A DNA stretch of 30,575 nt from Chlamydiales bacterium (GTDB taxonomy: Bacteria; Chlamydiota; Chlamydiia; Chlamydiales; JAAKFR01). The DNA lies in contig JAJACO010000155.1 in the NCBI GenBank assembly GCA_022601475.1, positions 1 through 30,575 of the forward strand, read 5' to 3'. Made by a program: the position numbers and the translations under genes. This document shows positions 4,239-30,366 of the stretch, one piece after another; position 1 is the first letter of the stretch; the number at the start of each line of letters is the position of its first letter. The notes under the pieces were generated by a model, which saw only the letters and a program-made list of their open reading frames with translations, had not been told where the DNA came from and did not search any database.

Positions 4239-4850
4239 ATGAGTGGTCTTTTTATTGGGATGCCTTGTTTTTTTAGACAACTGGATACAGATGGCCGCTG
4301 TCAAAGCTTTACACAGACTTCTCAAAATGATTGGGTTTACTGTTTAGAACTTCTGCAGCCCGATACAATGGCTGTTGTAACCGGAAGTGAGCTCAGCTTG
4401 TTTTCTCCTCCCAACAATAGAGGCAGATGGACGCAAGGACTCCCTCTAATCAGAGAAGAAGGGACAAGAAATTCGAAGCAAAGACCTCATATTTCATCTA
4501 TTTGTAATTTAGGAAATAACAAAATAGTCTTAGCAGACTTCTGTGGAAAGATAAAAACAGTCGATTATTTTACAGGAAATATAGAGAGCGTTTATGACGA
4601 ACATGTGGGACGTGCATGGAAAGTTGTGAAAATCGAAGAGAAACTATTTGCAAGTTGTGCAGATGACGGCAGTATAAAAATATGGGACATTCGAGCAGAT
4701 AAGAGTGTGCTGACGTTTTCAGGCTTTCCTGGGCGTGTTTCTAATCTTCTGTATCTTGATGATCAACAGGTTCTTGTAGCGGGATCCTGTCCCGATGATA
4801 TCCGAAGAGCTGTTGATAAAGCGCAGTTAGATTTCATAGAAATCAGGTAG
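4239..4850 (+). CDS. WD40-repeat (beta-propeller) protein, probably a 5'-truncated remnant
   Basis: Clear WD40 repeat EHVGRAWKVVKIEEKLFASCADDGSIKIWDIR, plus GFPGRVSNLLYL...LVAGS. The frame stays open upstream to 4080 with no ATG and encodes a further WD-like segment. AT-rich (17/60 G+C at 4501-4560). Confidence 0.7.
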   Translation: MSGLFIGMPCFFRQLDTDGRCQSFTQTSQNDWVYCLELLQPDTMAVVTGSELSLFSPPNNRGRWTQGLPLIREEGTRNSKQRPHISSICNLGNNKIVLADFCGKIKTVDYFTGNIESVYDEHVGRAWKVVKIEEKLFASCADDGSIKIWDIRADKSVLTFSGFPGRVSNLLYLDDQQVLVAGSCPDDIRRAVDKAQLDFIEIR

Positions 4851-16800: not shown

Positions 16801-17775
16801 ATGCGCGTTCTTGTCACCGGTGGTGCCGGATATGTGGGTTCAAAACTTGTGCCTGCTCTTCTAAAGCAAGGGTATGAGGTGAATGTTTTAGACCTCTATC
16901 TTTATGGTGATTCTGTTTTGGAACCGCATTCAGATTTAACACAGATTAAAGGAGATATTCGAGACCTTACTGTTTTAGAAGAGGCTCTTGATGAGTGCGA
17001 AGCTGTTATTCACCTAGCTTGTATTTCTAACGATCCAAGTTTTGAGCTTAATCCAGAGCTTGGTAAGTCGATTAACTTCGATGCATTTGAGCCGATGGTA
17101 AAAATGGCAAAAGAGAAAGGGATCAAGCGCTTTATTTACGCGTCCTCTTCTTCTGTTTATGGGGTAAAACAGGTGCCAAATGTGACAGAAGAGATGGACT
17201 TAGAGCCTCTGACTGATTATTCTAAATTTAAGGCTCTTTGTGAGCAGGTGTTATTTGATTACATGGATGAGACGTTTACTTGTACCGTATTGCGTCCGGC
17301 CACTGTGTGCGGCTATGCGCCTCGTCAACGCTTGGATGTTGTAGTCAACATCTTAACCAATCACGCCTATCACAACAAAAAAATTAAGATTATGGGAGGC
17401 GAGCAGATGCGTCCTAATATCCATATCGATGACATGGCCGCTGCGTATTTACATGTGTTAGAGCAGCCTAAAGAGAAAGTGCAGGGAGAGATTTTTAATG
17501 TGGGGTATCTCAATCACACAGTGCGAGAAATTGGTGAGATTGTGGCTAAAGTGTCTGGAGAGTGCGCGCTAGAAGTTGTTCCCACAGACGATAATCGCTC
17601 TTATCATGTGTCATCTGAAAAAATCGCTCAAAAGTTAGGTTTTGTCCCCTTAAGAACTCTAGAAGATGCGGTACACGATTTAATCGAGGCTTTTAAAGAA
17701 AATAAGCTCCCCAATGCGATGGAAGATGCACGTTATTTTAATATTAAAACAATGAATCAACTGGAGCTTAAGTAG
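16801..17775 (+). CDS. NAD-dependent nucleotide-sugar epimerase/dehydratase (SDR; start set at ATG 16801)
   Basis: [50 protein letters not shown] upstream. Confidence 0.9.
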   Translation: MRVLVTGGAGYVGSKLVPALLKQGYEVNVLDLYLYGDSVLEPHSDLTQIKGDIRDLTVLEEALDECEAVIHLACISNDPSFELNPELGKSINFDAFEPMVKMAKEKGIKRFIYASSSSVYGVKQVPNVTEEMDLEPLTDYSKFKALCEQVLFDYMDETFTCTVLRPATVCGYAPRQRLDVVVNILTNHAYHNKKIKIMGGEQMRPNIHIDDMAAAYLHVLEQPKEKVQGEIFNVGYLNHTVREIGEIVAKVSGECALEVVPTDDNRSYHVSSEKIAQKLGFVPLRTLEDAVHDLIEAFKENKLPNAMEDARYFNIKTMNQLELK

Positions 17776-18789
17776 ATGCGTGCTTTAGTGACAGGTGGTG
17801 CCGGTTTTATTGGGAGTCATCTTACAGAGCTTTTGTTAGCATCTGGACATGAGGTTTTAGTGGTTGATAACCTTAACTCGGGGCGATTACAAAATTTAGG
17901 CAGTGTACACGCTCATCCTGGGTTTTCTTTTCATGAGGTGGATATTTGTGACAAGTTAGCGTTGACTCCTCTATTTGAGGGGGTAGAATGGGTTTTTCAT
18001 CTTGCGGGGTTAGCCGATATTGTCCCTTCGATCGAAAATCCTGCGGATTATTATAAAGTGAATGTGGAGGGGACATTCAATGTGCTAGAGTGCGCCCGCT
18101 CTGCTGGTGTAAAGCGATTGATTTATGCAGCCTCCTCTTCGTGCTACGGCATCCCCAAAGCCTATCCCACGCCCGAAACAGCCGAGATCTCCCCTCAGTA
18201 TCCTTACGCATTGACCAAATACTTGGGAGAAGAACTTGTGATGCACTGGGAAAAGGTGTATCAAATCCCCGCAGTGAGCTTACGTCTTTTTAATGTATTT
18301 GGTCCAAGATCCCGTACAACAGGCACATATGGGGCAGTGTTTGGAGTGTTTTTGTCACAAAAATTGCATGGTAAACCGTTAACAGTTGTTGGAGATGGCA
18401 CTCAAACACGCGATTTTACGTATGTTGAAGATGTAGCGCGCGCCTTTTTGAGTGCAGCAAATAGTTGTGTTTCTGGAGAGATTTTTAATGTGGGTAGTTC
18501 CTCGCATTATAGTGTCAATCAGCTCGTAGAGCTTTTGGAGGGTGAGGTTGTTTCAATCCCCAAGCGGCCAGGTGAGCCCGATTGCACCTTTGCTGATGTA
18601 GGTAAAATCCAAGATTTACTCAACTGGAGGGCGGAAGTGCCTTTTGAAGAGGGTGTCAAAAGGTTGCTTGCGTGCATCGATGATTTTAAAAGCGCTCCCT
18701 TGTGGGAGCCTGAGTCCATTGAAAAAGCAACAAAGAGTTGGTTTACTCACTTGAGCGAAGGAGAAAAAGCTTGTTTAGACAACGTTTAG
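17776..18789 (+). CDS. NAD-dependent nucleotide-sugar epimerase/dehydratase (SDR)
   Basis: TGGAGFIGSH, FHLAGLADIVPS, YAASSSCYG, YALTK, LRLFNVFGP, QTRDFTYV. Confidence 0.9.
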   Translation: MRALVTGGAGFIGSHLTELLLASGHEVLVVDNLNSGRLQNLGSVHAHPGFSFHEVDICDKLALTPLFEGVEWVFHLAGLADIVPSIENPADYYKVNVEGTFNVLECARSAGVKRLIYAASSSCYGIPKAYPTPETAEISPQYPYALTKYLGEELVMHWEKVYQIPAVSLRLFNVFGPRSRTTGTYGAVFGVFLSQKLHGKPLTVVGDGTQTRDFTYVEDVARAFLSAANSCVSGEIFNVGSSSHYSVNQLVELLEGEVVSIPKRPGEPDCTFADVGKIQDLLNWRAEVPFEEGVKRLLACIDDFKSAPLWEPESIEKATKSWFTHLSEGEKACLDNV

Positions 18790-19355
18790 ATGAATTATCC
18801 GGCGTGATAGATCGGTGTGTTTACACTACCAGCCAAGGAGAGGTGAGCGCTTCTGAAGCACTAAAAATGTTTCATTTTTTGCTAGAACAAGTGACGCAAG
18901 TAGAAGGCATTGTCTATGTGATTGGCAATGGAGGGAGCGCAGGTATCGCTTCGCATTTTTGTACAGACTTGCTCCGCACGCTTCAAATCTCTGCAATGAC
19001 TTTTTCAGATTCTAATATCCTCACTTGTTTTGCCAATGATTTTGGGTATGAAAATGTGTATAAAATGCCTCTTATGTGCAATTTACGCTCACGCGATTTA
19101 CTTGTAGCTATTTCAAGCTCTGGATCTTCTCAAAATATTGTAGAGGCGTGCCAAGTGGCTCGAGACAAAAAAGCGGGATTGATCACTTTGAGTGGATTTG
19201 AGCCGGACAACGCTTTGCGAGGGCTTGGAGAGTTAAATTTTTGGCTGGAGAGCGCTGATTATGGACTTGTAGAGACGGGTCATTTTTTTCTATTACATAC
19301 GATTGTGGATACATGCAAAACAAAATCAAAGCGCTTAGCAACATCCGCGGTGTAG
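18771..19355 (+). CDS. gmhA: SIS-domain phosphosugar isomerase, GmhA-like (sedoheptulose-7-phosphate isomerase); start set at TTG 18771
   Basis: IGNGGSAGIASH, TCFANDFGYE, AISSSGSSQNIVEA, ITLSGF, final VETGH...H. AAGGAG RBS 7 nt before the TTG. Confidence 0.75.
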   Translation: MFRQRLDELSGVIDRCVYTTSQGEVSASEALKMFHFLLEQVTQVEGIVYVIGNGGSAGIASHFCTDLLRTLQISAMTFSDSNILTCFANDFGYENVYKMPLMCNLRSRDLLVAISSSGSSQNIVEACQVARDKKAGLITLSGFEPDNALRGLGELNFWLESADYGLVETGHFFLLHTIVDTCKTKSKRLATSAV

Positions 19356-20839
19356 TCGCGCAAGAGCAGGGGAGTGGAAACAAAATTGTGCACTGTCACG
19401 GTGTGTTTGATCTGCTCCATCCTGGGCATTTGCGCCACCTAAAAGAGGCGCGTAAACAGGGAGATAAGCTTGTTGTTTCGATCACTCCCGACAGATTTGT
19501 AAACAAGGGGCCGGGGCGTCCCGCTTTTGAAGAAAAACTCCGCCTCGAGCAGCTCGCTTCTTTAGTGTATGTCGATTATGTGGTGCTCAATGATGCCAAA
19601 GATGCGGTTTCTGTGATTCAAACAATTCAGCCCGATGTCTATGTAAAGGGGGCTGAATATCAAGATCACAAGGGGGACATTACCGGCAAGATTTCCGATG
19701 AGGCTAAAGCAATAGAGCGTGTGGGTGGCAAAATTTACTACACAGATGACATTGTGTACAGCTCCTCTGAGTTAATCAATCGCTTTGTGGATACAGATGC
19801 TCAAAGAATAGCTCCCTTTATAGAACAACTAAAAAAACACACTTCTCTTGATGAACTATTAAGCCGGGTTGATTCATTTAAAGATCTTAAAGTGCTTGTT
19901 GTAGGCGATGCGATCATTGATGAGTACCAGTATGTCGCTCCCTTGGGGCAAGCGGGAAAAGGAGTGCATCTCACCGCAAAACTCTTAGAAAAAGAGGTGT
20001 TTTTGGGAGGTTCTTTAATTATTGCCAACCATTTAGCTTCGTTCGCTTCGAATGTAACTCTTTTAACAGGTGTGGGCAAAAACTGCTCCAACCTAGAGAC
20101 AATTACCCAAAATCTCGCTCCGAACGTGGAGACAAATTTTGTCTACTTTGATGCGTATCCTACTCTGACAAAGACGCGGTTTGTGCTAGAGGATGGCAAA
20201 ACGATTACTAAGCTCTTTGAGACCTATTCGAGCAATCATTCTCTTGTAGAGCAGAAACACACCGACCAAATCACACACTTTTTAAACAAAAAAAGTGCAG
20301 AATATGATCTGATCTTAGTGTGTGATTTTGGAAATGGATTTACAAATCCATCCATTGTAAACACTTTGAGTGATCAAAAGGGCTTTTTAGCTGTTAATAC
20401 GCAGACAAACAGTGGAAATCGTGGGTTTAATGTGGTCACTCAATACCATCGAGCTGATTTTATTTCTCTTAATGAACCTGAACTACGTTTAGCAGCGCAC
20501 GATCGCTATAGTCGTTTGGAAACCGTTGTCGAAGATATTGCGGGACTTTTAAATTGTGCGCGTGTCTCTGTAACGCGTGGTGTAGAGGGTGTGTTTTTGC
20601 ACACACAGAATGCAGAATCTGTGTGGATTCCTGCATTGACAACACGCTCTATTGACCGCGTTGGCGCGGGGGATAGTTACTTTGCCTTAGCAAGTCTAAG
20701 CGCAGCTAAAGGTTGCTCTTCTTTAACAAGTGGTTTTTTGGGGTCTGTGGCAGCTGCAATTGACGTACAAATTGTGGGAAATAAAGAAGCGGTACAAAAA
20801 ACAGAACTGTGTAAATACATCACCCGGTTACTTAAATGA
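19313..20839 (+). CDS. Bifunctional nucleotidyltransferase / PfkB sugar kinase (HldE-like, reversed domain order)
   Basis: N-terminal HxGH cytidylyltransferase-like domain (HGVFDLLHPGHLRHL, PDVYVKGAEY, YSSSELI). C-terminal ribokinase-fold domain (VVGDAIIDEY, LNEPELR, VTRG, DRVGAGDSY). Confidence 0.88.
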   Translation: MQNKIKALSNIRGVVAQEQGSGNKIVHCHGVFDLLHPGHLRHLKEARKQGDKLVVSITPDRFVNKGPGRPAFEEKLRLEQLASLVYVDYVVLNDAKDAVSVIQTIQPDVYVKGAEYQDHKGDITGKISDEAKAIERVGGKIYYTDDIVYSSSELINRFVDTDAQRIAPFIEQLKKHTSLDELLSRVDSFKDLKVLVVGDAIIDEYQYVAPLGQAGKGVHLTAKLLEKEVFLGGSLIIANHLASFASNVTLLTGVGKNCSNLETITQNLAPNVETNFVYFDAYPTLTKTRFVLEDGKTITKLFETYSSNHSLVEQKHTDQITHFLNKKSAEYDLILVCDFGNGFTNPSIVNTLSDQKGFLAVNTQTNSGNRGFNVVTQYHRADFISLNEPELRLAAHDRYSRLETVVEDIAGLLNCARVSVTRGVEGVFLHTQNAESVWIPALTTRSIDRVGAGDSYFALASLSAAKGCSSLTSGFLGSVAAAIDVQIVGNKEAVQKTELCKYITRLLK

Positions 20840-21738
20840 CGCAAGCACTCACACTTGACTATGAACTCAAACGGATCCGCATGGTTGAAGAGGCGATTGC
20901 GGAGCGCTATTCTGAGCAACAAATGCGCTGTCCTGTACATTTGAGCATTGGACAAGAAGCTGTGGCTGTTGGTGTGTGCTCACAACTTAAAGAGACAGAT
21001 CTTGTGGTGAGTGGGCATCGCGCGCATGCACATTACTTAGCTAAGGGAGGCTCTCTAAAAAAAATGCTCGCCGAGATTTATGGCAAGCAAACAGGTTGCT
21101 GTAAAGGACGAGGAGGCTCGATGCACCTTGTCGATTTAGAGGCGGGCTTTTTGGGTTCTACACCGATTGTGGGAGGGACTATTCCCATCGGCGTAGGAGC
21201 AGCTTTTGGATCTGTTTTAAAAAATCAGTCGCATGTTGTGACGATTTTTCTTGGGGAGGGCTCGACAGAAGAGGGTGTTTTTGCAGAGAGTTTAAATTTT
21301 GCAGCGCTTAAAAAATTGCCTGTTTTGTTTGTTTGTGAGAACAATCTCTACTCTGTTTATTCGCCGCTAGAGGTGCGGCAACCCAAAGAGCGTAAAATTC
21401 CTTTAATTGCGGAGGCGCACGGCATTTTTGCTCTGCAAGGAGATGGGAATGATGTGGAAGAGGTGATCGATCTAACCTCTCAAGCGCTCGAACATATACA
21501 TGCGGGAAGAGGTCCTTGTTTGCTTGAGTTTGCCACCTATCGTTTTAGAGAACACTGTGGCCCACATTTTGATCCATATCAACCTGAAGAAGAAGTGCTT
21601 TTTTGGAAAGAGCGCGATCCTTTATTAAAAGTGAAGATAGATGTGGAACCGATAAAAAGGGAGATTGAAGAGGCATTTGCTTTTGCTCTTTCAAGTCCAT
21701 TTCCTATTGCAGAACCAAAAGATGAGCACTATGCCTGA
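20836..21738 (+). CDS. TPP-dependent dehydrogenase E1 alpha-like subunit
   Basis: HLSIGQEA, HRAHAHYLAKG, GRGGSMH, TPP motif GEGSTEEG...ENN, TYRFREHCG. Confidence 0.9.
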   Translation: MTQALTLDYELKRIRMVEEAIAERYSEQQMRCPVHLSIGQEAVAVGVCSQLKETDLVVSGHRAHAHYLAKGGSLKKMLAEIYGKQTGCCKGRGGSMHLVDLEAGFLGSTPIVGGTIPIGVGAAFGSVLKNQSHVVTIFLGEGSTEEGVFAESLNFAALKKLPVLFVCENNLYSVYSPLEVRQPKERKIPLIAEAHGIFALQGDGNDVEEVIDLTSQALEHIHAGRGPCLLEFATYRFREHCGPHFDPYQPEEEVLFWKERDPLLKVKIDVEPIKREIEEAFAFALSSPFPIAEPKDEHYA

Positions 21739-22801
21739 CATCAAGTTTAGCCAAGCGATTTTACAAGCGACCGACCAATTAATGGAACTCGATGCTTCGA
21801 TCTACCTCATGGGGCTGGGAGTTCCGGATCCTAAAGGAATTTTTGGAACAACAACAGGATTAGAAGACAAATACGGCGCAGATCGAGTGATGGACATGCC
21901 CACATCCGAAAATGCCATGACAGGCGTTGCTATTGGATCTGCAATCATGGGAATGCGTCCGATCATGACCCATCAAAGGGTAGATTTCATGCTCCTTGCT
22001 CTTGATCAACTGATCAATAACGCAGCTAAATGGCATTATATGTTTGGTGGTCAAATGAAAGTGCCTCTGGTCGTTCGTTTAATTATGGGGCGTGGATGGG
22101 GGCAAGGACCGCAGCATGCACAAACCTTTCAGAGTCTTTTTGGCCACATTCCCGGTTTAAAGGTGGTGATGCCCTCGAGCCCACACGATGCAAAGGGCTT
22201 GCTTGTCGCCGCTGTGCAAGATGATAATCCTGTGATCTATTTGGAGCACAGGTGGCTCCACTCTATTCATGGCGAGGTGCCAGAAGAGCTTTATAGCATT
22301 CCTTTGGGGAAGGCGCACCGCCTCTTAGAGGGCTCTGATCTCACCTTTATCGCTTGCTCTCATATGACATTAGAGGCCTTTAAGGCGGCAAAAGCACTAG
22401 AAGCGGAGGGCATTTCTTGCGAGGTGATCGATCTAAGATCGATTCAACCTCTTGATAAAGAGATGATTTTAGAATCCGTGCGCAAAACTGGTAGAGCGAT
22501 TATTGCAGACCCCGATTGGAAAACGTGCGGACTGGCTGCAGAAATCAGTGCTCTTTTGGTAGAGGAAGCATTCGATGCATTACGCAGCCCTCCCAAGAGA
22601 GTGACCTATCCAGACGCGCACTCCCCAACGAGTTGGGCGCTTGCTAATCACTACTACCCAACACACGCTGATTTAATGATTACAGCTCTTCAAATGTTGG
22701 GTAAATCCGTGCAGGCGCGCCACGTATTAGAAACACTATTAGATTCTAAAATGAAGGAGCCGTTGGATACTCCAGACCCTTCTTTTACGGGTCCATTTTA
22801 A
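21731..22801 (+). CDS. TPP-dependent dehydrogenase E1 beta-like subunit (start set at ATG 21731)
   Basis: DMPTSENAMTG, MRPIMTH, GQGPQHAQ, PGLKVVMPS, YLEHR, EVIDLRSIQPLD. Confidence 0.9.
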   Translation: MPDIKFSQAILQATDQLMELDASIYLMGLGVPDPKGIFGTTTGLEDKYGADRVMDMPTSENAMTGVAIGSAIMGMRPIMTHQRVDFMLLALDQLINNAAKWHYMFGGQMKVPLVVRLIMGRGWGQGPQHAQTFQSLFGHIPGLKVVMPSSPHDAKGLLVAAVQDDNPVIYLEHRWLHSIHGEVPEELYSIPLGKAHRLLEGSDLTFIACSHMTLEAFKAAKALEAEGISCEVIDLRSIQPLDKEMILESVRKTGRAIIADPDWKTCGLAAEISALLVEEAFDALRSPPKRVTYPDAHSPTSWALANHYYPTHADLMITALQMLGKSVQARHVLETLLDSKMKEPLDTPDPSFTGPF

Positions 22802-22813
22802 AGAGGTTTTTGG

Positions 22814-23803
22814 ATGAAAAAAGTTTTAGTGATTGGAAGCAATTCTTTTTCTGGTAGCGACTTTGTCGATCTTTTGCTCGAAGAGGGGGACTATCATGTG
22901 ATTGGAGTGAGCAGATCGAGTGAGAAAGAAGCGCTTTTTTTGCCCTACAAGCAGCGGCTGTGTCCCAATTTTCAGTTTCACAAAATTGATTTAAATCACG
23001 ATCTTGCCAAACTAGAAGAGATTTTGGATGCTGAAAGACCCGAGTACATCGTCAACTTTGCAGCTCAAAGTGAGGTGGCGCCTAGTTGGCAGTATCCTCA
23101 CCATTGGTTTCAGACAAATGCAGTCTCTTTAACGCAGCTTGCGAACATATTAAAAGATAAGACTTTTTTAAAAAAGTATGTCCATATCTCTTCTCCCGAA
23201 GTGTACGGCACGTGCGAGGGTTTTATTAAAGAGCAGACTCCTCTCAACCCAACAACACCTTATGCAGCCTCCAAAGCGGCGGGCGATTTTTCTCTTTTTA
23301 CCTTTGCCAAAAATTTCAACTTTCCGCTTGTGATGATCCGCGCTACCAATGTGTATGGGCCCCACCAGCAACTCTTTAAGATTATTCCTCGCTCGATGAT
23401 TTATATGAAACAGGGGCATAAAATCCCTCTACATGGAGGGGGTAGGGCGGTCAAATCGTACATCTATATTCGCGATGTTTCTTTAGGGGAGTTACTCGCT
23501 ATGGAACAAGGGCGTCCGGGAGAAATTTATCATCTCTCACCCGATCAAGGAGTCGCTGTAAGGGATGTTGTCAAAACCATCGCCAATAAATTAAACCTCC
23601 CCTTTGAAAATGTAGTTGATGTGGTTGAGGAGCGCCTAGGACAGGATAAAGCGTATACAATAGACTCCTCAAAAGCACGTACAGAGCTTGGATGGCAGCC
23701 TGCAGTTAGTCTTGAGGAGGGAATTGAAAAAACACTGAATTGGGTTAACGGCTCATTTGAAACCATCACACAACAACCCCTAGAATATATACACAAGGAA
23801 TAA
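22814..23803 (+). CDS. NDP-sugar 4,6-dehydratase-family SDR (RmlB/Gmd-like)
   Basis: VNFAAQSEV, HISSPEVYG, PYAASK, RATNVYGPHQ, KSYIYIRD, ERLGQDKAYTIDSSKAR. The Rossmann motif is atypical (GSNSFSG). Confidence 0.8.
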   Translation: MKKVLVIGSNSFSGSDFVDLLLEEGDYHVIGVSRSSEKEALFLPYKQRLCPNFQFHKIDLNHDLAKLEEILDAERPEYIVNFAAQSEVAPSWQYPHHWFQTNAVSLTQLANILKDKTFLKKYVHISSPEVYGTCEGFIKEQTPLNPTTPYAASKAAGDFSLFTFAKNFNFPLVMIRATNVYGPHQQLFKIIPRSMIYMKQGHKIPLHGGGRAVKSYIYIRDVSLGELLAMEQGRPGEIYHLSPDQGVAVRDVVKTIANKLNLPFENVVDVVEERLGQDKAYTIDSSKARTELGWQPAVSLEEGIEKTLNWVNGSFETITQQPLEYIHKE

Positions 23804-23805
23804 GA

Positions 23806-24465
23806 ATGGGACAGCAAATTGATCTATTAGAAAATTATCCCAAAGCGAAGCGTAATGTGAAAGAGCGGGGCGCAACAAAAACAGAAGAAGATCGAACAAT
23901 TGCGCGCGCTTTTGGAAAAGAGTTTTTTGATGGAGAGCGCAAGCACGGCTATGGAGGTTTTAGCTATAGCCCCAGATTTTGGCAACCCGTTGTGCCCACA
24001 TTCCAGAAATTTTATGATCTCTCGGCTCAATCTAAGGTTTTGGATGTGGGATGCGCCAAGGGATTTATGGTGTACGACTTTAAACAATTGATTCCGGGCA
24101 TTCAAATAGAGGGGATCGATGTCTCCTCCTACGCCATTGAAAACAGCCAAGAGCAAGTGCGCTCTTATTTACAGGTCGCAGATGCAAGAGCTTTGCCTTA
24201 CTCAGACAACAGCTTTGATCTTGTCATTGCGATCAACACGATCCATAATTTAGAAAAAAATGAGCTGATTGTAGCACTAAAAGAGATTGAACGAGTGAGC
24301 TGTGGTCACAGTTTTATCACGGTGGATGCGTACCGCAACGAGGAAGAAAAAGAGTTAATGAACGCATGGAATCTCACCGCTAAAACCATTTTATCGGTAG
24401 AGGAGTGGGAAGCGCTTTTTCAGCAAGTGGGCTATACAGGAGATTACTATTGGTTCATCCCTTAA
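23806..24465 (+). CDS. Class I SAM-dependent methyltransferase
   Basis: Motif I VLDVGCAKG, GIDVS, LPYSDNSFDLVIAINTIH. Confidence 0.88.
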   Translation: MGQQIDLLENYPKAKRNVKERGATKTEEDRTIARAFGKEFFDGERKHGYGGFSYSPRFWQPVVPTFQKFYDLSAQSKVLDVGCAKGFMVYDFKQLIPGIQIEGIDVSSYAIENSQEQVRSYLQVADARALPYSDNSFDLVIAINTIHNLEKNELIVALKEIERVSCGHSFITVDAYRNEEEKELMNAWNLTAKTILSVEEWEALFQQVGYTGDYYWFIP

Positions 24466-25253
24466 TTGTCATTGGATCCAATGGATTTATCGGTAGCCAC
24501 TTTTGTAAAAAATGGCCCGAAGCTTTGGGCATTTCGCGCGCAGAGCTCGATCTAACCGATCCGCAGATCCATTTTTCTACTGCAGGTTTTGAATATGCTC
24601 TCATTGCAGCGGGCGTTTGTCAACTGCATGCATGCGAGACAAATCCACAACAAACTCATCTTTGCAACGTAGAGGGAACGCTTAAATTAGGAGAGCTTTT
24701 GCTTCAAAAGGGAGTGTGTCCTATTTTTTGTTCTTCTGATGCGGTCTTTAATGATCGGTTAGAGTTAGCTCCTCTCAATGTGTATGGAACTCAAAAAGCT
24801 TTACTAGAAAAAGAAGCGGTTAAACTAGGTGCTCTTGTGATCCGTTTGAGCAAAGTGTATGGAGAGGATCGAGGGGATGGAACTCTTTTTGATGAAATGG
24901 CTGGTCGGTTGTCTCAACATCAATCGATTGAAGCGGCAAAAGATCAAATTTTTTCTCCGGTGCATATCGACGATGTGCTCTTAACTGTTGCAAACTGCAT
25001 CAAAACAGAAGCAAGGGGAATAGTGAATGTGACAGGTCCTCATTACGCCTCTCGCTATGAGATGGCTATCACACTTGCAAAAGGTTTAGGTGTCTCCTCA
25101 AACTTAGTCAAGGCGATTCAATTAGCTGATAGAAAAGAGGAATTTAAACGGGCCAAAAACACGCCTTTGAATTCTTCCTTTTCAAAAATAGCGTGGGAGC
25201 AAGGAGTGCAACACGTGCTCAACAATTATAAGCAGGAAGTGTATGGAACATAA
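24450..25253 (+). CDS. RmlD-like NDP-4-keto-sugar reductase (start set at TTG 24450)
   Basis: GSNGFIG, FCSSDAVF, YGTQK, DQIFSPVHI, SRYEMA. AGGAG RBS 7 nt before the TTG. Confidence 0.78.
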   Translation: MVHPLIVIGSNGFIGSHFCKKWPEALGISRAELDLTDPQIHFSTAGFEYALIAAGVCQLHACETNPQQTHLCNVEGTLKLGELLLQKGVCPIFCSSDAVFNDRLELAPLNVYGTQKALLEKEAVKLGALVIRLSKVYGEDRGDGTLFDEMAGRLSQHQSIEAAKDQIFSPVHIDDVLLTVANCIKTEARGIVNVTGPHYASRYEMAITLAKGLGVSSNLVKAIQLADRKEEFKRAKNTPLNSSFSKIAWEQGVQHVLNNYKQEVYGT

Positions 25254-25911
25254 AGAACAAGAAACGTGGGATTTAACCGCCGAGATGCTGGGCAATGACT
25301 CTGTGGCACTCTCGGATCACTGGTCGTATAATTTTAGAAACGACCCCAAAAGATTAGCCTTTGTGCTAGCGCGTTATAAATTTGCTGCAAAAATGGGCTC
25401 TAAAAACCGCTCTCTACTCGAATTGGGATGCGGAGAGGGAATTGGCGCTCCTATTTTGGCTGAAATGGCCACTCATTATACAGGAGTGGACTTAGATGAT
25501 GCAGCGATCTTAACAGCTAAAGAAAACTTTGATCCACAAAAATTCTCTTTTTTATACGACGATTTTATGGGCAAAACCTTTGGGGAATTTCAAACAGTGA
25601 TCAGCCTAGATGTTGTAGAGCACATCTATAAGGAGCATGAAGCTGTTTATTTTAAAACTTTGCTTCAAAACCTCACCTCCGATGGCATTGCGATTGTGGG
25701 CACTCCCAACATCACAGCCGCCCCCTACGCTTCTGAGGCAAGTAACCTAGGACATGTGAATCTTTTTTCTCAAAAACGACTAAAAGAGACGCTAGAAATA
25801 TATTTCCATAACGTTTTTCCTTTTGGTATCAACGACGAAACAGTGCACACAGGTTACGCCCCGATGGCGCATTATGTGATGTGTGTGGCATGTAATCGGA
25901 GAGATGTATGA
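25243..25911 (+). CDS. Class I SAM-dependent methyltransferase
   Basis: LLELGCGEG, GVDLD, SLDVVEHI, GTPN. Confidence 0.88.
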   Translation: MEHKEQETWDLTAEMLGNDSVALSDHWSYNFRNDPKRLAFVLARYKFAAKMGSKNRSLLELGCGEGIGAPILAEMATHYTGVDLDDAAILTAKENFDPQKFSFLYDDFMGKTFGEFQTVISLDVVEHIYKEHEAVYFKTLLQNLTSDGIAIVGTPNITAAPYASEASNLGHVNLFSQKRLKETLEIYFHNVFPFGINDETVHTGYAPMAHYVMCVACNRRDV

Positions 25912-26651
25912 ACCAATTTAAAGAACAATTTCAACAACAAGGCTGGTTTGTTTTTGATCTCCTCGATCCAAAACCTGTACTCCAAACGCGTGCCTTTTTA
26001 AAAGAGGCGCTTTTCAAGCTGTGTGGAAAACAGAGCTCTCTTGAGGAATATCACACCCATTTTTTGGATGATCAAGAACACACAGAAATGCAAGTTAAAC
26101 TGACGCAGATGTATCGAGAACAAAAATGCGGTCCCTCTATTATCGAGGCGCAGCTTCCCTTTTTTCAAGATCTTTTGGGTCCGGACCTCTCTGTGCAAGC
26201 TAACCCCTATTTACGCATCACCCGCCCTTGTAAAAAGCAAGACAATATCGGCTATCACAGAGACACTTTTTATGGTGGATCGCCTTTTGAACTCTCCGTG
26301 TTTATCCCCTTTGTCGACCTTCCAAAAGAGAGTAGTTTAAGCGTTCTACCAGGCTCTCATGTGCAGCCGGATACGCATTATCCCACAACACAAGTTGAAA
26401 ATTCTGATACTCAAGTGCGCAAAGGGACAGCCAAACATCAACTTGGCTTTTTATATGCCCCTAAAATGATGGATTCCTCAATCGAAGAGCAGATGCACGC
26501 GCTTGCACCTGTTGATTTAAGTGCAAGAGCTGACTATTATCAACCTTTGAGTCACTCAGTCGTGACACAATCCGCAAACCAATACCTAAAGGCCAATGGA
26601 CAAGAAACAAGAAAGCATGTCGAATTGGAGCTGTGTCACACAGCTTCTTGA
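25908..26651 (+). CDS. PhyH-like 2-oxoglutarate/Fe(II) oxygenase-family protein, apparently missing its distal strands (possible pseudogene)
   Basis: YHRD (HxD), FIPFVD, LSVLPGSH are present. The expected later G-x-x-x-x-F...H...N...R segment is not seen. Confidence 0.7.
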   Translation: MNQFKEQFQQQGWFVFDLLDPKPVLQTRAFLKEALFKLCGKQSSLEEYHTHFLDDQEHTEMQVKLTQMYREQKCGPSIIEAQLPFFQDLLGPDLSVQANPYLRITRPCKKQDNIGYHRDTFYGGSPFELSVFIPFVDLPKESSLSVLPGSHVQPDTHYPTTQVENSDTQVRKGTAKHQLGFLYAPKMMDSSIEEQMHALAPVDLSARADYYQPLSHSVVTQSANQYLKANGQETRKHVELELCHTAS

Positions 26652-27276
26652 ACAAGAAAAACCGATCCAATTTGGGCGCTATAACAGCTATCTAATGCAC
26701 AATACCCCCAAGAGGATGCTCTTTTCTCTCTCCTATTACAAATTTGCCGCCAAAATGATTGGCAGCAATAAAAAAGTGCTCGACGTGGGCTGTAATGAAG
26801 GCTTGGGAAGCTGGGTGATCGCAAAAGAGTGCGGCTATTGCAAAGGGGTTGACTTTGATGCGCCGGCGATACAGTCAGCACAACGCAATTTTCAAGAGCG
26901 CTCTGTCGCATTTGAACATGCCGATTTTTTAGATATGCCAACGGAGCAAAAGTGGGATGCTGTTGTGAACTTTGATGTCATTGAGCACATCTATCCGGAG
27001 CATTCGCTTGCATTTATCGAAAAAATTGCTATTAACCTCTCTTCTACAGGAATCGCTGTGATCGGCACGCCGAGTGCCATTAGCCAGCAGTTCGCCTCTC
27101 CAATTTCTAAAAAGGGGCACGTGAATATTTATACACATGAGAGATTAGAATCTGAGCTTTTAGCCCAATTTGAGAATGTTTTTTTATTCGCAGCCAATGA
27201 TGAGGTTGTGCATACGGGGTATTTACCTTTAGCACATTATTTTATCGCTGTTTGCTGCAAACCAAAGAGAAATTAA
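26596..27276 (+). CDS. Class I SAM-dependent methyltransferase (paralog of 25243-25911)
   Basis: VLDVGCNEG, GVDFD, NFDVIEHIY. Shares YKFAAKM, GHVN and NDE.VHTGY.P.AHY with the upstream paralog. Confidence 0.88.
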   Translation: MDKKQESMSNWSCVTQLLEQEKPIQFGRYNSYLMHNTPKRMLFSLSYYKFAAKMIGSNKKVLDVGCNEGLGSWVIAKECGYCKGVDFDAPAIQSAQRNFQERSVAFEHADFLDMPTEQKWDAVVNFDVIEHIYPEHSLAFIEKIAINLSSTGIAVIGTPSAISQQFASPISKKGHVNIYTHERLESELLAQFENVFLFAANDEVVHTGYLPLAHYFIAVCCKPKRN

Positions 27277-27277
27277 T

Positions 27278-28147
27278 ATGCAAACGCTCAATCGATGGAC
27301 ACGCTCTTTGCTCAAACGTCTTCCGGGAGGGCCGCAATATCTGCAAAAGCGGATGATTTATAAAAAATATCTCTTTAAGCCCTGTTCTAAAGAGATTTAT
27401 AGCGGCTTGCACGGTCACAAAAAAGAGGCAGACGCCGTCTATCTCGAAGCCTTTGACCGTATCTTTTTGCTGATCAGCGCTTTTTATAGCAATGGCCTGC
27501 GTGGGGATATCTATGAATTTGGAGTGATGAATGGCTATACAGCTGCGCTTTTAGCAGACTGTATGCTAAGATTTAATCTTCAACAAAGCCAATTGCAGCT
27601 TTTTGATTCCTTTGATGGGTTGCCTGAGATGAGCGAGGTGGATCGCGATAATTATGAATATCAAAATGGGCAATGGGACAAAGGAGCGCTAAAAACACCT
27701 CAAGGACTCGAGGTGTTTTTAAAACAAGAATTACAAAAAAAATTGGGCCTACAACGGGTGCACGCCTTTAAGGGGTATTTTGAAAACACCTTAGAAAAAG
27801 TGATCGCCACAAAAAAATTATCAAAAGCGCTGTTGATCAACCTCGATTGCGATCTTCATAGCTCTTCAAAATTTGTGCTTCAAACGTTATTAGAGCACGA
27901 TTTAATTCAAGATGGAACAGTGCTTATTTGTGATGATTGGATGACAAGCTTTGGAAATCCCAATTTAGGGCAACGGAGAGCCGTACAAGAAATCTTAGAG
28001 TGTTACCCGCAATGGAGCTTAGAACCTTACATGAACTACGGTCTAGGTTCTCAGGTATTTGTGATGCACAACCTCTCAATTACAAAAGGAAAAAAACTCG
28101 ATGAAGACAAAAGCGTGTATTCTCACCCAGCTCAATGCGCCTCTTGA
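27278..28147 (+). CDS. TylF/MycF-family (macrocin-type) sugar O-methyltransferase
   Basis: GDIYEFGV, LFDSFDGLP, KGYFENTL, INLDCDLHSS, GTVLICDDW. Confidence 0.8.
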   Translation: MQTLNRWTRSLLKRLPGGPQYLQKRMIYKKYLFKPCSKEIYSGLHGHKKEADAVYLEAFDRIFLLISAFYSNGLRGDIYEFGVMNGYTAALLADCMLRFNLQQSQLQLFDSFDGLPEMSEVDRDNYEYQNGQWDKGALKTPQGLEVFLKQELQKKLGLQRVHAFKGYFENTLEKVIATKKLSKALLINLDCDLHSSSKFVLQTLLEHDLIQDGTVLICDDWMTSFGNPNLGQRRAVQEILECYPQWSLEPYMNYGLGSQVFVMHNLSITKGKKLDEDKSVYSHPAQCAS

Positions 28148-29138
28148 AATTTGGGAACTTGAAATCCCCTCTCTTAAAGAAGGGCAGGTACTGGTCAAGA
28201 TTGCCTATACAGGAGCGTGCCATTCTCAACTTAATGAAATAAAAGGACTTAAAGGAGAAGATGCCTTCTTGCCCCACACTCTAGGGCATGAGGGTTCGGG
28301 TATTGTAGAAGCTGTAGGCAACAATGTCACAAAAGTCAAACCATCCGATCACGTTGTGCTCACCTGGATCAAAGCAGAGGGCGCCAATGTAGCTAGCGCC
28401 CAATATAAGAGCGCTAGAGGCGCTGTTAATTCAGGTGCGATCAGTACATTTATGACCTACGCCATTATTTCAGAAAACCGGGTGATTCCCATTCCAAAAG
28501 CGATGCCTCTTAAAGAAGCGGCGCTCTTGGGCTGCGCCATTCCAACAGGAGCGGGTGTTGTAAAAAATGAGATGCAGCTCAAAGAGAGCGACTCATTTGC
28601 GGTATATGGAGCAGGAGGCGTGGGATTGAGCGCACTTTTAGCAGCAAAACAAGCAAAAGCCTATCCACGCATTGCTGTCGATGTCCAAGCGCATAAACTT
28701 GAAAAAGCCAAACAGCTCGGTGCAACGCATACAGTGGATGCGCGCGCAACAAATCCAGCGGAAGCGATCAAGTTGATTACAAAGGGCCAAGGGGTAGATT
28801 TTGTCTTTGAATCTGCAGGCAAAAAGCAAGCCATGGAGCAAGCATATAGCTCTTTAAAGGCTCCTGGGCTTTGTGTATTAGCGGGCAATCTACCCAAAGG
28901 AGAGCGCATCTCAATCGATCCCTTTGATTTGATCGTGGGCAAAAAGATTGTGGGTACGTGGGGAGGTAAAAGTTCTATTGACCAAGATGTGGCTGACTAC
29001 GTCGCTCTCTACCTAAAAGGAGAGCTAGACTTGGCGGCTTTGATCACGCATGAGCACCCGCTTGAAGAGATCAATGCCTTGTTTGAGCTGTTAGAAAGAG
29101 GAGAGGTGGGCCGTGGTCTACTTTGTTGTTTTGAATAA
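28101..29138 (+). CDS. Zn-dependent medium-chain alcohol dehydrogenase
   Basis: GACHSQ, GHEGSG, LLGCAIPTG, nucleotide-binding GAGGVG, VDFVFESAG, ITHEHPLEEIN. Confidence 0.9.
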   Translation: MKTKACILTQLNAPLEIWELEIPSLKEGQVLVKIAYTGACHSQLNEIKGLKGEDAFLPHTLGHEGSGIVEAVGNNVTKVKPSDHVVLTWIKAEGANVASAQYKSARGAVNSGAISTFMTYAIISENRVIPIPKAMPLKEAALLGCAIPTGAGVVKNEMQLKESDSFAVYGAGGVGLSALLAAKQAKAYPRIAVDVQAHKLEKAKQLGATHTVDARATNPAEAIKLITKGQGVDFVFESAGKKQAMEQAYSSLKAPGLCVLAGNLPKGERISIDPFDLIVGKKIVGTWGGKSSIDQDVADYVALYLKGELDLAALITHEHPLEEINALFELLERGEVGRGLLCCFE

Positions 29139-29160: not shown

Positions 29161-30366
29161 TCAAGCATTAGATTTGGGTAATCCGAGTCGCTTAATCACC
29201 AGTTCAGCTGTTTGAATACCCTCATTAATCGCGATTCTCTCAGCTTTTTTAAGCAGCTCTCCCATTTGCTTACCAGGATTAATTCCATACGCTTGTAGAT
29301 GGGCTGCTGTGACAAGAGGGGTTTTGTTTTCAATTCTTTGAATAGCTATCTGCAGCTGATGCGCTCTCTGTTGGTGCTCTTCAATATAGTTTTGTTTGTC
29401 GGAGGGCATTTTTTTAGCCGCTTGTATCTCTAGAAAAAGTTTGGAAAGAGGGTGTGCATAAAAATAGGCCCACTCATAGCTCTCTGTGTATTCATGAGAT
29501 GTAGAGAAAAAATCCACAAGCTTGCGATCTTTTACTGTTGCTTTTAGATAACGGCAGAGGTTGATTTTTTGAGCATGGGTGTAGTCGGGAAACAGCTCTA
29601 GCAAATAGAGAATCAGAGGGCAATTAAGGGGAAAATAGGGGAAGAATTGCACCCGTGTTTCGATTTCATCTTTAGATAGATCTTTTAAATGAGCAAAAAG
29701 TACCTGTAGAAGGCCAAAAGTGTGCAATTGAATCATCGCCTGGCCAAACCTGGCAGAGCGCGCCATTTTATTGAGCTCCTGCCACACTCTTTCAATAGAA
29801 ACCGAGGGAAAAACAGTAGACGCGTACGCATGGATCGCCGCTTGTGTTTGAGATTCGATTTCAAAATTAAAGCGAGTGGCAAAACGGACAGCGCGGATCA
29901 TCCGCAGTCTATCCTCTTCAAATCGCTTTTTAGGATCGCCAATGGCTCGAATCACACCCTTTTTTAGATCTTCTCTTCCTTCTACATAATCATGAATCGT
30001 TTCATTTAAGGGATCATAGAACATACCATTGATGGTAAAATCTCTGCGCTCAGCGTCTTTTTCCGGCGTAGAAAAATCCACTCCATCGGGGTGTCTTCCA
30101 TCTTGATAAGGGTGATCTTTTCGAAAGGTTGTGATCTCAAAGTTAAAGCCTTGATAGACGACAATCACAACTCCAAATGCAATCCCAACAGGAATGGTTT
30201 TTTCAAAGAGTTCTTGAATTTTAGAAGGGGGAGCGCTTGTGGCGATATCGATTTCATCCGAAGGCTCATTGAGTAATAAATCTCTCACCCATCCGCCCGC
30301 AATATAAGCGGTGTAGCCCGCATCAAAAAGGGTTTGGCAAATGCTTTTGGCGCTTTGTAATAACAT
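29161..30366 (-). CDS. cca: tRNA nucleotidyltransferase (class II CCA-adding enzyme family)
   Basis: AGGWVRD, DEIDIAT, intact flexible loop TFRKDHPYQDGRHP, RRDFTING, EDRLRMIRAVRF, ERVWQEL. No poly(A)-polymerase [LIV][LIV]G[RK][RK]F signature (IPVGIAF instead). Confidence 0.85.
   Translation of the reverse strand: MLLQSAKSICQTLFDAGYTAYIAGGWVRDLLLNEPSDEIDIATSAPPSKIQELFEKTIPVGIAFGVVIVVYQGFNFEITTFRKDHPYQDGRHPDGVDFSTPEKDAERRDFTINGMFYDPLNETIHDYVEGREDLKKGVIRAIGDPKKRFEEDRLRMIRAVRFATRFNFEIESQTQAAIHAYASTVFPSVSIERVWQELNKMARSARFGQAMIQLHTFGLLQVLFAHLKDLSKDEIETRVQFFPYFPLNCPLILYLLELFPDYTHAQKINLCRYLKATVKDRKLVDFFSTSHEYTESYEWAYFYAHPLSKLFLEIQAAKKMPSDKQNYIEEHQQRAHQLQIAIQRIENKTPLVTAAHLQAYGINPGKQMGELLKKAERIAINEGIQTAELVIKRLGLPKSNA

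Follow-up and report, generated by a model that had tools for sequence, protein, structure and literature searches.

In a Chlamydiota metagenome-assembled genome (MAG; 1.68 Mb in 197 contigs, 85% complete), a contig of 30,575 nucleotides (JAJACO010000155.1, our contig C63), which we analysed over its full length and call the window, carries an operon of 14 genes, g01 to g14, that we are somewhat inclined to read from its sequence as a pathway devoted to a modified heptose in nucleotide-activated form, extended by two carbons from pyruvate and built into a Wzx/Wzy-type surface glycan. Every chemical step proposed here rests on homology, gene context or inference. A GmhA-like isomerase (g03) would convert sedoheptulose-7-phosphate into heptose-7-phosphate, and a fusion of HldC- and HldA-like domains (g04) would phosphorylate C1 and, after loss of the 7-phosphate through a phosphatase for which there is no gene candidate, give a nucleoside diphosphate (NDP)-heptose of the ADP or CDP type. 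A Cj1427-like short-chain dehydrogenase/reductase (SDR; g01) and/or an RmlB-like SDR (g07) would then yield a 4-keto (6-deoxy) intermediate, and an E1 alpha/beta pair (g05, g06) would decarboxylate pyruvate on thiamine diphosphate (ThDP) and place the two-carbon unit onto the sugar carbonyl, producing a C-acetyl tertiary alcohol. Reduction or epimerisation of the branched product would fall to a zinc-dependent alcohol dehydrogenase (Zn-ADH; g14) and the other SDRs, methylation to up to four methyltransferases, and the finished sugar would enter the Wzx/Wzy glycan. For the order of these steps, the C4 position and a 'C9 skeleton' we rely on inference only.

A broader proposal, to which we give slightly less credence and which should be taken as tentative, is that the operon represents an undescribed class of heptose-derived, C-branched or C-extended (C9 or larger), methylated surface sugars, distributed over environmental chlamydiae, many other bacterial phyla and some archaeal phyla. 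Its E1 pair could then be the first carboligase of the alphaKADH2 ('alpha-keto acid dehydrogenase 2') type to serve primary cell-envelope glycan synthesis and to act on a heptose, this type consisting of E1-like pairs that add pyruvate-derived acetyl to sugar ketones (2025 review, PMC12247030).

The 14 open reading frames (ORFs) are all co-oriented on the + strand and extend from 16735 to 29138; the first of them, g01, opens at TTG 16735, with ATG 16801 as the likelier start. With the starts as listed, neighbouring ORFs overlapped by up to 74 nt or were separated by at most 12 nt, and several junctions, including g04/g05 and g10/g11, were 4-nt overlaps of the ATGA type, so that ORF positions and junction lengths confirmed the 14 tightly coupled, co-oriented genes described in an earlier note on this DNA. 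Scans of the cluster for consensus promoters and terminators returned counts equal to those in shuffled sequence, and operon status therefore rests on gene packing and conserved gene order. The cluster is flanked upstream by a divergent GT2 glycosyltransferase gene (15794-16726, - strand) and downstream by a convergent cca gene (29161-30366, - strand). A match to the MreC model PRK14872 and the nearest relatives of the operon genes assign the genome to Chlamydiota.

Entry through a heptose is suggested by g03 and g04. The g03 gene (18738-19355, + strand; start uncertain, between 18738 and 18867) encodes a divergent GmhA-like protein with a SIS_2 domain, a candidate sedoheptulose-7-phosphate isomerase, which scored 70.6 bits against TIGR00441 (cut-off 209) and whose best matches in the Protein Data Bank (PDB) were all phosphoheptose isomerases. 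It retained the GNGGSA, SxSGxS and C-terminal His motifs and, in what we take to be the residue numbering of E. coli GmhA, equivalents of the catalytic His61 and His180, but Asp in place of Glu65 and Glu in place of Gln172. The product of g04 (19313-20839, + strand) joins an N-terminal HldC-like nucleotidyltransferase (CTP_transf_like, residues 29-155) to a C-terminal HldA-like heptose-7-phosphate kinase (PfkB, residues 193-490), and its PDB matches were 5x9q and 4e84 (heptose 7-phosphate kinase). Both halves of HldE were matched in reversed domain order, residues 8-141 corresponding to positions 325-453 of the HldE model NF008454 and residues 187-502 to TIGR02198; the NF008454 score of 146.7, against a cut-off of 521, places the fusion outside HldE as that model defines it.

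Elsewhere, the same genome carries a canonical GmhA (181 bits, C8:276-731), a separate HldA (C52, 295 bits), an HldC (C58) and two GT9 heptosyltransferases; g03 and g04 are thus dedicated, extra and divergent paralogues, and the GmhA/HldE-type heptose activation anticipated by the earlier note was supported in this form. The genome showed neither an RmlC nor an Rml-type pathway, and its one NTP_transferase-type gene lies on a different contig. The g04 fusion is thus the operon's only sugar-activating enzyme, which speaks against g07 and g09 forming a dTDP-6-deoxyhexose by a route of their own. As a separate observation, chlamydial heptose-1,7-bisphosphate dephosphorylation has no gene candidate either in this genome, where no GmhB was found despite its GmhA, HldA, HldC and GT9 genes, or in four related genomes, which were searched for GmhB only. 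A gene for a GmhB-like HAD phosphatase occurs in six cassettes of distant organisms.

The E1 pair of the window is not a housekeeping one. It consists of g05 (20836-21738, + strand), a ThDP-dependent E1 alpha of apparently E2-independent type (E1_dh, E 2e-53), and g06 (21731-22801, + strand), an E1 beta with Transket_pyr and Transketolase_C domains, whose ORF opens at 21665 and for which the starts ATG 21722 and 21731 agree with the orthologues. The genome contains three other E1 sets (alpha plus beta on C41, a fused alpha-beta on C58 and a SucA-like protein on C62) and three E2 genes, located beside the C41 set, beside the C62 set and on C8, whereas no E2 or E3 gene was present on the contig of the window, consistent with the earlier note's E1 alpha and beta without E2/E3. 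The window pair is therefore a fourth, E2-less set, 27-39% identical to the others (g05, 27-32% to the other E1 alphas; g06, 39% to the housekeeping E1 betas), and it scored below the curated pyruvate dehydrogenase (PDH) cut-offs (g05, 264 bits against 394 for TIGR03182; the pair, 314.6 against 321 for NF006667), so that neither these scores nor any linked E2 places it among housekeeping PDH or branched-chain 2-oxoacid dehydrogenase (BCKDH) E1s.

Phylogeny agreed. In an E1 beta tree, cassette-type sequences formed one group, of 78 members at first and of 80 after addition of plasmid-borne pairs from Azospirillum oryzae and Solidesulfovibrio magneticus; with one Streptomyces pair they made up a clade of 81 rows (Shimodaira-Hasegawa-like approximate likelihood ratio test, SH-aLRT, 99) that excluded the housekeeping E1 beta and fused E1 sequences, taken from the genome of the window and from four other cassette-bearing genomes. 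The grouping with housekeeping PDH/BCKDH on which the earlier note had made its E1 proposal depend was thus not observed. All chlamydial E1 betas fell in one clade, starred on the tree, and a protein search with the E1 beta returned only close chlamydial relatives under generic names ('alpha-ketoacid dehydrogenase subunit beta', 'acetoin:DCPIP oxidoreductase'), the closest solved structures of the pair being PDH and BCKDH E1s. In the g05 product, the ThDP motif appears as G-E-G...N-N and the family signature as Y-R-F-R-E-H-C-G-P, the motif reading G-[DE]-[GAS] across orthologues. At window positions 21253-21261 (g05 residues 140-142) this ThDP/Mg motif is G-E-G, as in eight of the nine chlamydial E1 alphas displayed, including that of the window, and in a Microcoleus sequence (L073); G-D-[GA] was seen in the six other phyla displayed.

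The argument for sugar branching is carried by the conserved neighbours of the E1 pair, not by its clade membership. A scan of species-representative genomes with the E1 beta gave 80 loci, 48 of them well flanked (23 chlamydial and 25 others). Among these 48, g01 was present in 41, g07 in 37, g04 in 35, g08 in 33, g03 in 31 and g14 in 28, defining a core, conserved in order, of Cj1427-like SDR, SIS protein, fusion, E1 alpha/beta, RmlB-like SDR, methyltransferase and Zn-ADH, hereafter the cassette. In most loci g01 directly precedes E1 alpha and g07 follows E1 beta, and the arrangement g01, E1 alpha, E1 beta, g07 is shared by several groups, among them Chlamydiota, Omnitrophota, Saganbacteria, Microcoleus cyanobacteria and Undinarchaeota; the cassette is found in further phyla too, at some loci with a different gene order. 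The gene set singled out in the earlier note is not unusual, being one of the forms taken by a cassette that many phyla share. Loci of other phyla showed additions, namely a classical SDR (21 loci), a YerE/acetolactate-synthase-like ThDP enzyme (18), DegT (11), split transketolase pairs (11), B12-radical-SAM enzymes (10) and C-methyltransferases. A plasmid of Azospirillum oryzae KACC 14407 (NZ_CP054615) encodes counterparts, 40-61% identical, of g01, g02, g03, the fusion in its full length and the E1 pair, the last at about 212.5-214.6 kb, and pDMC1 of Solidesulfovibrio magneticus RS-1 bears a variant of the cassette.

Other genes were more restricted: g02 was found in 19/23 chlamydial loci vs 4/25 of the others, and g09 to g13 are chlamydial accessories, with g09 confined to chlamydial loci. 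Within Chlamydiota, a cassette-type E1 beta was present in 66 of the 400 genomes that were sampled, in 41 of the 212 genera, and in none of the 29 genomes of one Chlamydiota family, whose listed members measure about 1.0-1.2 Mb. Among the related records seen, none stems from a cultured chlamydial isolate. Recent horizontal transfer was considered and rejected, given the similar GC content of cluster (44.2%) and genome (42.0%), the single chlamydial E1 beta clade and the cca gene, which is a conserved neighbour at several chlamydial cassette loci; inheritance in Chlamydiota looks old and patchy rather than recent. Two loci deserve separate mention. On a contig labelled as an Acidobacteriota MAG (L029), the E1 beta lies deep in the chlamydial clade, beside L026 and L031, as would be expected of a chlamydial contig that was mis-binned or after a recent transfer. 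In L006, the operon's closest full-length relative, four extra ORFs (160, 143, 433 and 96 aa) lie between E1 beta and the RmlB-like gene and may be an inserted element.

Formation of a keto sugar is the predicted task of the SDRs next to the E1 pair. The g01 product (16801-17775, + strand; Pfam Epimerase, E 4e-45) is an extended SDR and probably a sugar-nucleotide C4 dehydrogenase. Its best solved structure was 6vo6/6vo8 (E 6e-45), generically named in the search output, which we take to be C. jejuni Cj1427, and it has the motifs S-S-S-V-Y-G and YxxxK and lacks the dehydratase Glu. Cj1427 is a GDP-heptose C4 dehydrogenase that oxidises C4 with 2-oxoglutarate (PMC10680097). The related cassette of S. 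magneticus RS-1 pDMC1 includes a gene for an L-2-hydroxyglutarate oxidase (L131:21331-22533), an enzyme that would recycle the L-2-hydroxyglutarate formed by a 2-oxoglutarate-driven dehydrogenase of the Cj1427 type; no homologue was found in the genome of the window. The second SDR, g02 (17776-18789, + strand; Epimerase, E 5e-65), is a GalE/UXS-like extended SDR and putative epimerase or reductase, with UDP-glucose 4-epimerases and UDP-GlcA decarboxylases as best PDB matches and 61% identity to its A. oryzae plasmid homologue. Directly after E1 beta, g07 (22814-23803, + strand; GDP_Man_Dehyd, E 1e-49) encodes an RmlB-like SDR, a candidate non-canonical NDP-sugar 4,6-dehydratase that scored 210 bits against TIGR01181 (cut-off 365) and whose best PDB matches were dTDP-glucose 4,6-dehydratases.

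The remaining genes are consistent with tailoring of the sugar. Methyltransferases of class I, dependent on S-adenosylmethionine (SAM), are encoded by g08 (23806-24465; Methyltransf_25, Methyltransf_11), which belongs to the cassette core, and by the paralogues g10 (25243-25911; Methyltransf_23) and g12 (26596-27276; Methyltransf_31, Methyltransf_25), which are 40% identical to each other. The fourth, g13 (27278-28147), is a member of the TylF O-methyltransferase family, scoring 51.8 bits against a PF05711 gathering threshold of 23, and is a rare accessory, with an orthologue seen only at L006 (66% identity). An RmlD-like SDR of the 4-ketoreductase type is encoded by g09 (24405-25253; RmlD_sub_bind, E 1e-23; TIGR01214, 84 bits, under cut-off). 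The last gene, g14 (28101-29138; ADH_N, ADH_zinc_N), encodes a medium-chain Zn-ADH that resembles class III alcohol dehydrogenases and is a candidate branch ketoreductase; inspection of the sequence by eye showed candidate catalytic Cys/His/Cys ligands and no usual structural-zinc Cys loop. All six genes are on the + strand.

In contrast to the hydroxylation by a PhyH enzyme put forward in the earlier note, g11 (25908-26651, + strand) appears to be the remnant of a PhyH-like 2-oxoglutarate (2OG)-Fe(II) oxygenase. It had no Pfam match and only a sub-cut-off match, over its N-terminal half, to TIGR04324 ('2OG-Fe(II) oxygenase of sporadic carbohydrate clusters'; E 9e-13). Aligned with 12 orthologues, the window copy lacked 38 residues present in 12/12, which hold the distal His of V-H-G and, 11 residues on, the 2OG-binding Arg of R-W-S (RxS), while H-R-D was retained; neither the complete PhyH-like iron triad HxD...H nor the 2OG-binding Arg is left. 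The underlying DNA shows a clean in-frame deletion of 114 nt after about nt 26497 (26497-26498), unique to this genome. An identical 247-aa product is encoded in an independent Logan assembly (run SRR15145662), so that an artefact of a single assembler is unlikely, and the 2OG hydroxylation step has probably been lost in this organism, as judged from the missing residues. In the relatives, a short ATG microhomology lies at both borders of the stretch that is deleted here. PhyH was the only domain call of the earlier note that was not reproduced; of its overall interpretation, heptose entry, a non-housekeeping E1 and the glycan context were supported, and hydroxylation was not.

The glycan context comes from the flanks, in agreement with the Wzx/Wzy surface glycan setting proposed earlier. 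They include a Wzx-like flippase gene (10472-11740, - strand) for a polytopic membrane protein that matched NF041503 WZX_like below its cut-off (E 2e-10), a gene for a Wzy_C-type polymerase or ligase (8668-10038, + strand; PF04932, 35.1 bits, cut-off 31.7), three GT2 glycosyltransferase genes (Glycos_transf_2; 11728-12603, 14968-15807 and the 15794-16726 gene already mentioned, all - strand) and a Ugd gene. Homologues of the Wzx-like protein (33-37% identity) are encoded directly after the Zn-ADH gene in several distant cassettes. Two + strand ORFs (12631-13524 and 14157-14954) had no Pfam or NCBIfam match; both have N-terminal hydrophobic segments, and local GC there falls to 36%. A 203-aa ORF at window positions 4239-4850 gave weak WD40/beta-propeller matches, all under family cut-offs.

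Several results weigh against a heptose-branching pathway. No activity or characterised product was found in the literature for any cassette member, and the family scores of g03, g04, g05, g06 and g07 all missed the curated NCBIfam cut-offs. Searches with TIGR01656, TIGR00213 and a GmhB-like query from locus L046 found no GmhB phosphatase in the 85%-complete genome, and TIGR01656 had no match in the related chlamydial genomes L005, L006, L013 and L018, two of them closed. Where RmlB has T-D-E, g07 has S-S-P-E-V-Y-G, with loss of the Asp and retention of the Glu and of YxxxK; the earlier note's call of a 4,6-dehydratase-like protein is reproduced as an RmlB-like SDR and corrected in this motif. 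Among 56 aligned sequences, S-[ST]-P-E-V-Y-G and YAAS[KR] were conserved (Lys in 43, Arg in 13) and the position of the RmlB Asp was Pro in 53 and Ala in 3. Moreover, a Cj1427-like and an RmlB-like enzyme are redundant for merely making a 4-keto sugar, so one of the two must do something else. Finally, the nearest actinomycete E1 pairs that we reached, at 46-52% identity, lie in contexts of nonribosomal peptide synthetase/polyketide synthase (NRPS/PKS) genes or in other non-sugar contexts, and membership of the E1 clade alone is therefore no proof of sugar branching.

Two Streptomyces plasmid pairs were accordingly rejected as sugar-branching references. On pSGRIFU1 of Streptomyces griseofuscus, an E2-less pair (L128:13983-16029), 49-52% identical to that of the window, adjoins a condensation-domain protein, acyl carrier proteins and ketosynthases, apparently an instance of this E1 clade being used outside sugar chemistry; on pSALBX2 of S. 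albogriseolus, the neighbours are ABC-transporter, AMP-binding and acyl-CoA-dehydrogenase genes.

Among other explanations, chain extension with an aldehyde as acceptor competes seriously with branching at C4, although we consider it unlikely. The Zn-ADH or another oxidoreductase would turn a primary alcohol of the NDP-heptose (C7) into an aldehyde, to which the E1 pair would add two carbons to give a linear nine-carbon acyloin sugar. Such a route would agree with the general preference of ThDP carboligases, for which aldehydes are the usual acceptors and ketones the exception (PMC12247030), with the place of the class III-like Zn-ADH in the cassette core (28/48 loci), and with the further ThDP enzymes of related cassettes (YerE-like in 18, split transketolase in 11), which fit repeated carbon additions. 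However, the genes next to the E1 pair nearly everywhere encode the Cj1427-like and RmlB-like SDRs, enzymes that form ring ketones, the Zn-ADH gene usually lies several genes off, and the characterised alphaKADH2 examples use ring ketones (PMC12247030). That the operon instead makes two or more separate sugars, namely a modified heptose without a branch and, through the RmlB- and RmlD-like proteins, a methylated 6-deoxy sugar, with the E1 pair serving one of them or another acceptor, seems to us quite unlikely. In its favour, g09 to g13 are lineage-specific and absent outside Chlamydiota, and a glycan of several components is evident from the three GT2 genes together with two genes for precursor supply (Ugd and UXS-like SDRs); against it, the operon has a single nucleotidyltransferase, no RmlC was seen in the genome, whose one NTP_transferase-type gene lies elsewhere, and g07 is fixed beside E1 beta across phyla.

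A third explanation, transfer of the two-carbon or acyl unit from the E1 pair to a non-sugar acceptor or carrier, or its use as an acyl decoration of the glycan, draws on the pSGRIFU1 pair, which shares the 99%-supported clade with that of the window and has NRPS/PKS neighbours, and on the S. albogriseolus pair in its likewise non-sugar context. We regard it as decidedly improbable, for the window contains no carrier protein, lipoyl domain or condensation domain and the sugar-enzyme neighbours of the E1 pair are conserved across phyla. The least credible account by far is that g05 and g06 encode the conventional E1 of a pyruvate, acetoin or branched-chain 2-oxoacid dehydrogenase, which has its E2 partner elsewhere and is in the operon by chance. 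Generic database names and the PDH and BCKDH E1s as closest structures would suit it; against it, the three E2 genes are matched in number by the three other E1 sets, two of these pairs being adjacent, the window pair belongs to a separate clade, and such pairs stay linked to sugar genes in 48 well-flanked loci.

If the operon is indeed a dedicated pathway for a C2-extended heptose, ThDP-dependent C-C branching of sugars would be common in the surface glycans of many phyla, including intracellular chlamydiae, whereas E1-type sugar-branching enzymes are so far known only from actinomycete antibiotics. The product would be a new type of monosaccharide and a possible antigen or host-recognition determinant, and the E1 pair a new biocatalyst for tertiary alcohols. 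Culturable carriers of the cassette, namely A. oryzae KACC 14407, S. magneticus RS-1 with pDMC1 and Microcoleus strains, make this reading testable.

The closest functional parallel is with the alphaKADH2 pairs, for which the evidence comprises feeding and knockout experiments for aldgamycin and in vitro carboligation by KbDH-alpha/beta for kibdelomycin (PMC12247030), and an acetyl-branching role has been proposed for AviB1/B2 (avilamycin) and Pau11/12 (paulomycin) (PMC12247030, PMC4753412). Like them, the window pair has two subunits and an intact ThDP motif, lacks E2 and E3 and lies amid SDRs for NDP-keto sugars, and addition of a pyruvate-derived acetyl followed by ketoreduction or methylation would fit its neighbours (PMC12247030, PMC4753412); this likeness is drawn from architecture, motif, gene context and published descriptions. 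The known pairs belong to 6-deoxyhexoses and antibiotic clusters, whereas here the substrate is apparently a heptose and the destination a Wzx/Wzy glycan of a Gram-negative intracellular bacterium. The alphaKADH2 class is known mainly from specialised metabolites, and branching in lipopolysaccharide (LPS) uses YerE-like enzymes (PMC12247030). In yersiniose A synthesis, YerE and YerF likewise equip a surface-polysaccharide sugar, in its NDP-4-keto form, with a pyruvate-derived two-carbon branch, which is then reduced (PMC4753412, PMC12247030), but YerE consists of a single chain and belongs to the decarboxylase (acetolactate-synthase-like) superfamily, in contrast to the E1 alpha/beta pair of the window; YerE-like genes stand beside the E1 pair in 18 related loci and not in the window. 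For a possible counterpart in the O-antigen of Coxiella burnetii, two papers on Coxiella LPS offered no mention of an E1, a transketolase or a thiamine enzyme.

For the heptose part, the capsular GDP-heptose route of C. jejuni (GmhA/HddA/GmhB/HddC, Cj1427, a heptose 4,6-dehydratase and C4-reductases) shares with our proposal the start from sedoheptulose-7-phosphate, a 4-keto heptose made by an SDR, reductases, O-methylation and a surface polymer as destination (PMC10680097). It differs in its activation by a GHMP kinase and GDP and in having no ThDP enzyme, whereas the window has an HldA/HldC-type fusion and, in addition, the E1 pair, the Zn-ADH and four methyltransferases. The ADP-heptose pathway of the LPS core (GmhA, HldE or HldA plus HldC, GmhB, HldD) uses the same families of isomerase, C1-kinase and nucleotidyltransferase; in the window, by contrast, the order of the fusion is reversed, scores lie far under the equivalog cut-offs and the operon has neither GmhB nor HldD, while the genome keeps a separate canonical set for the LPS core.

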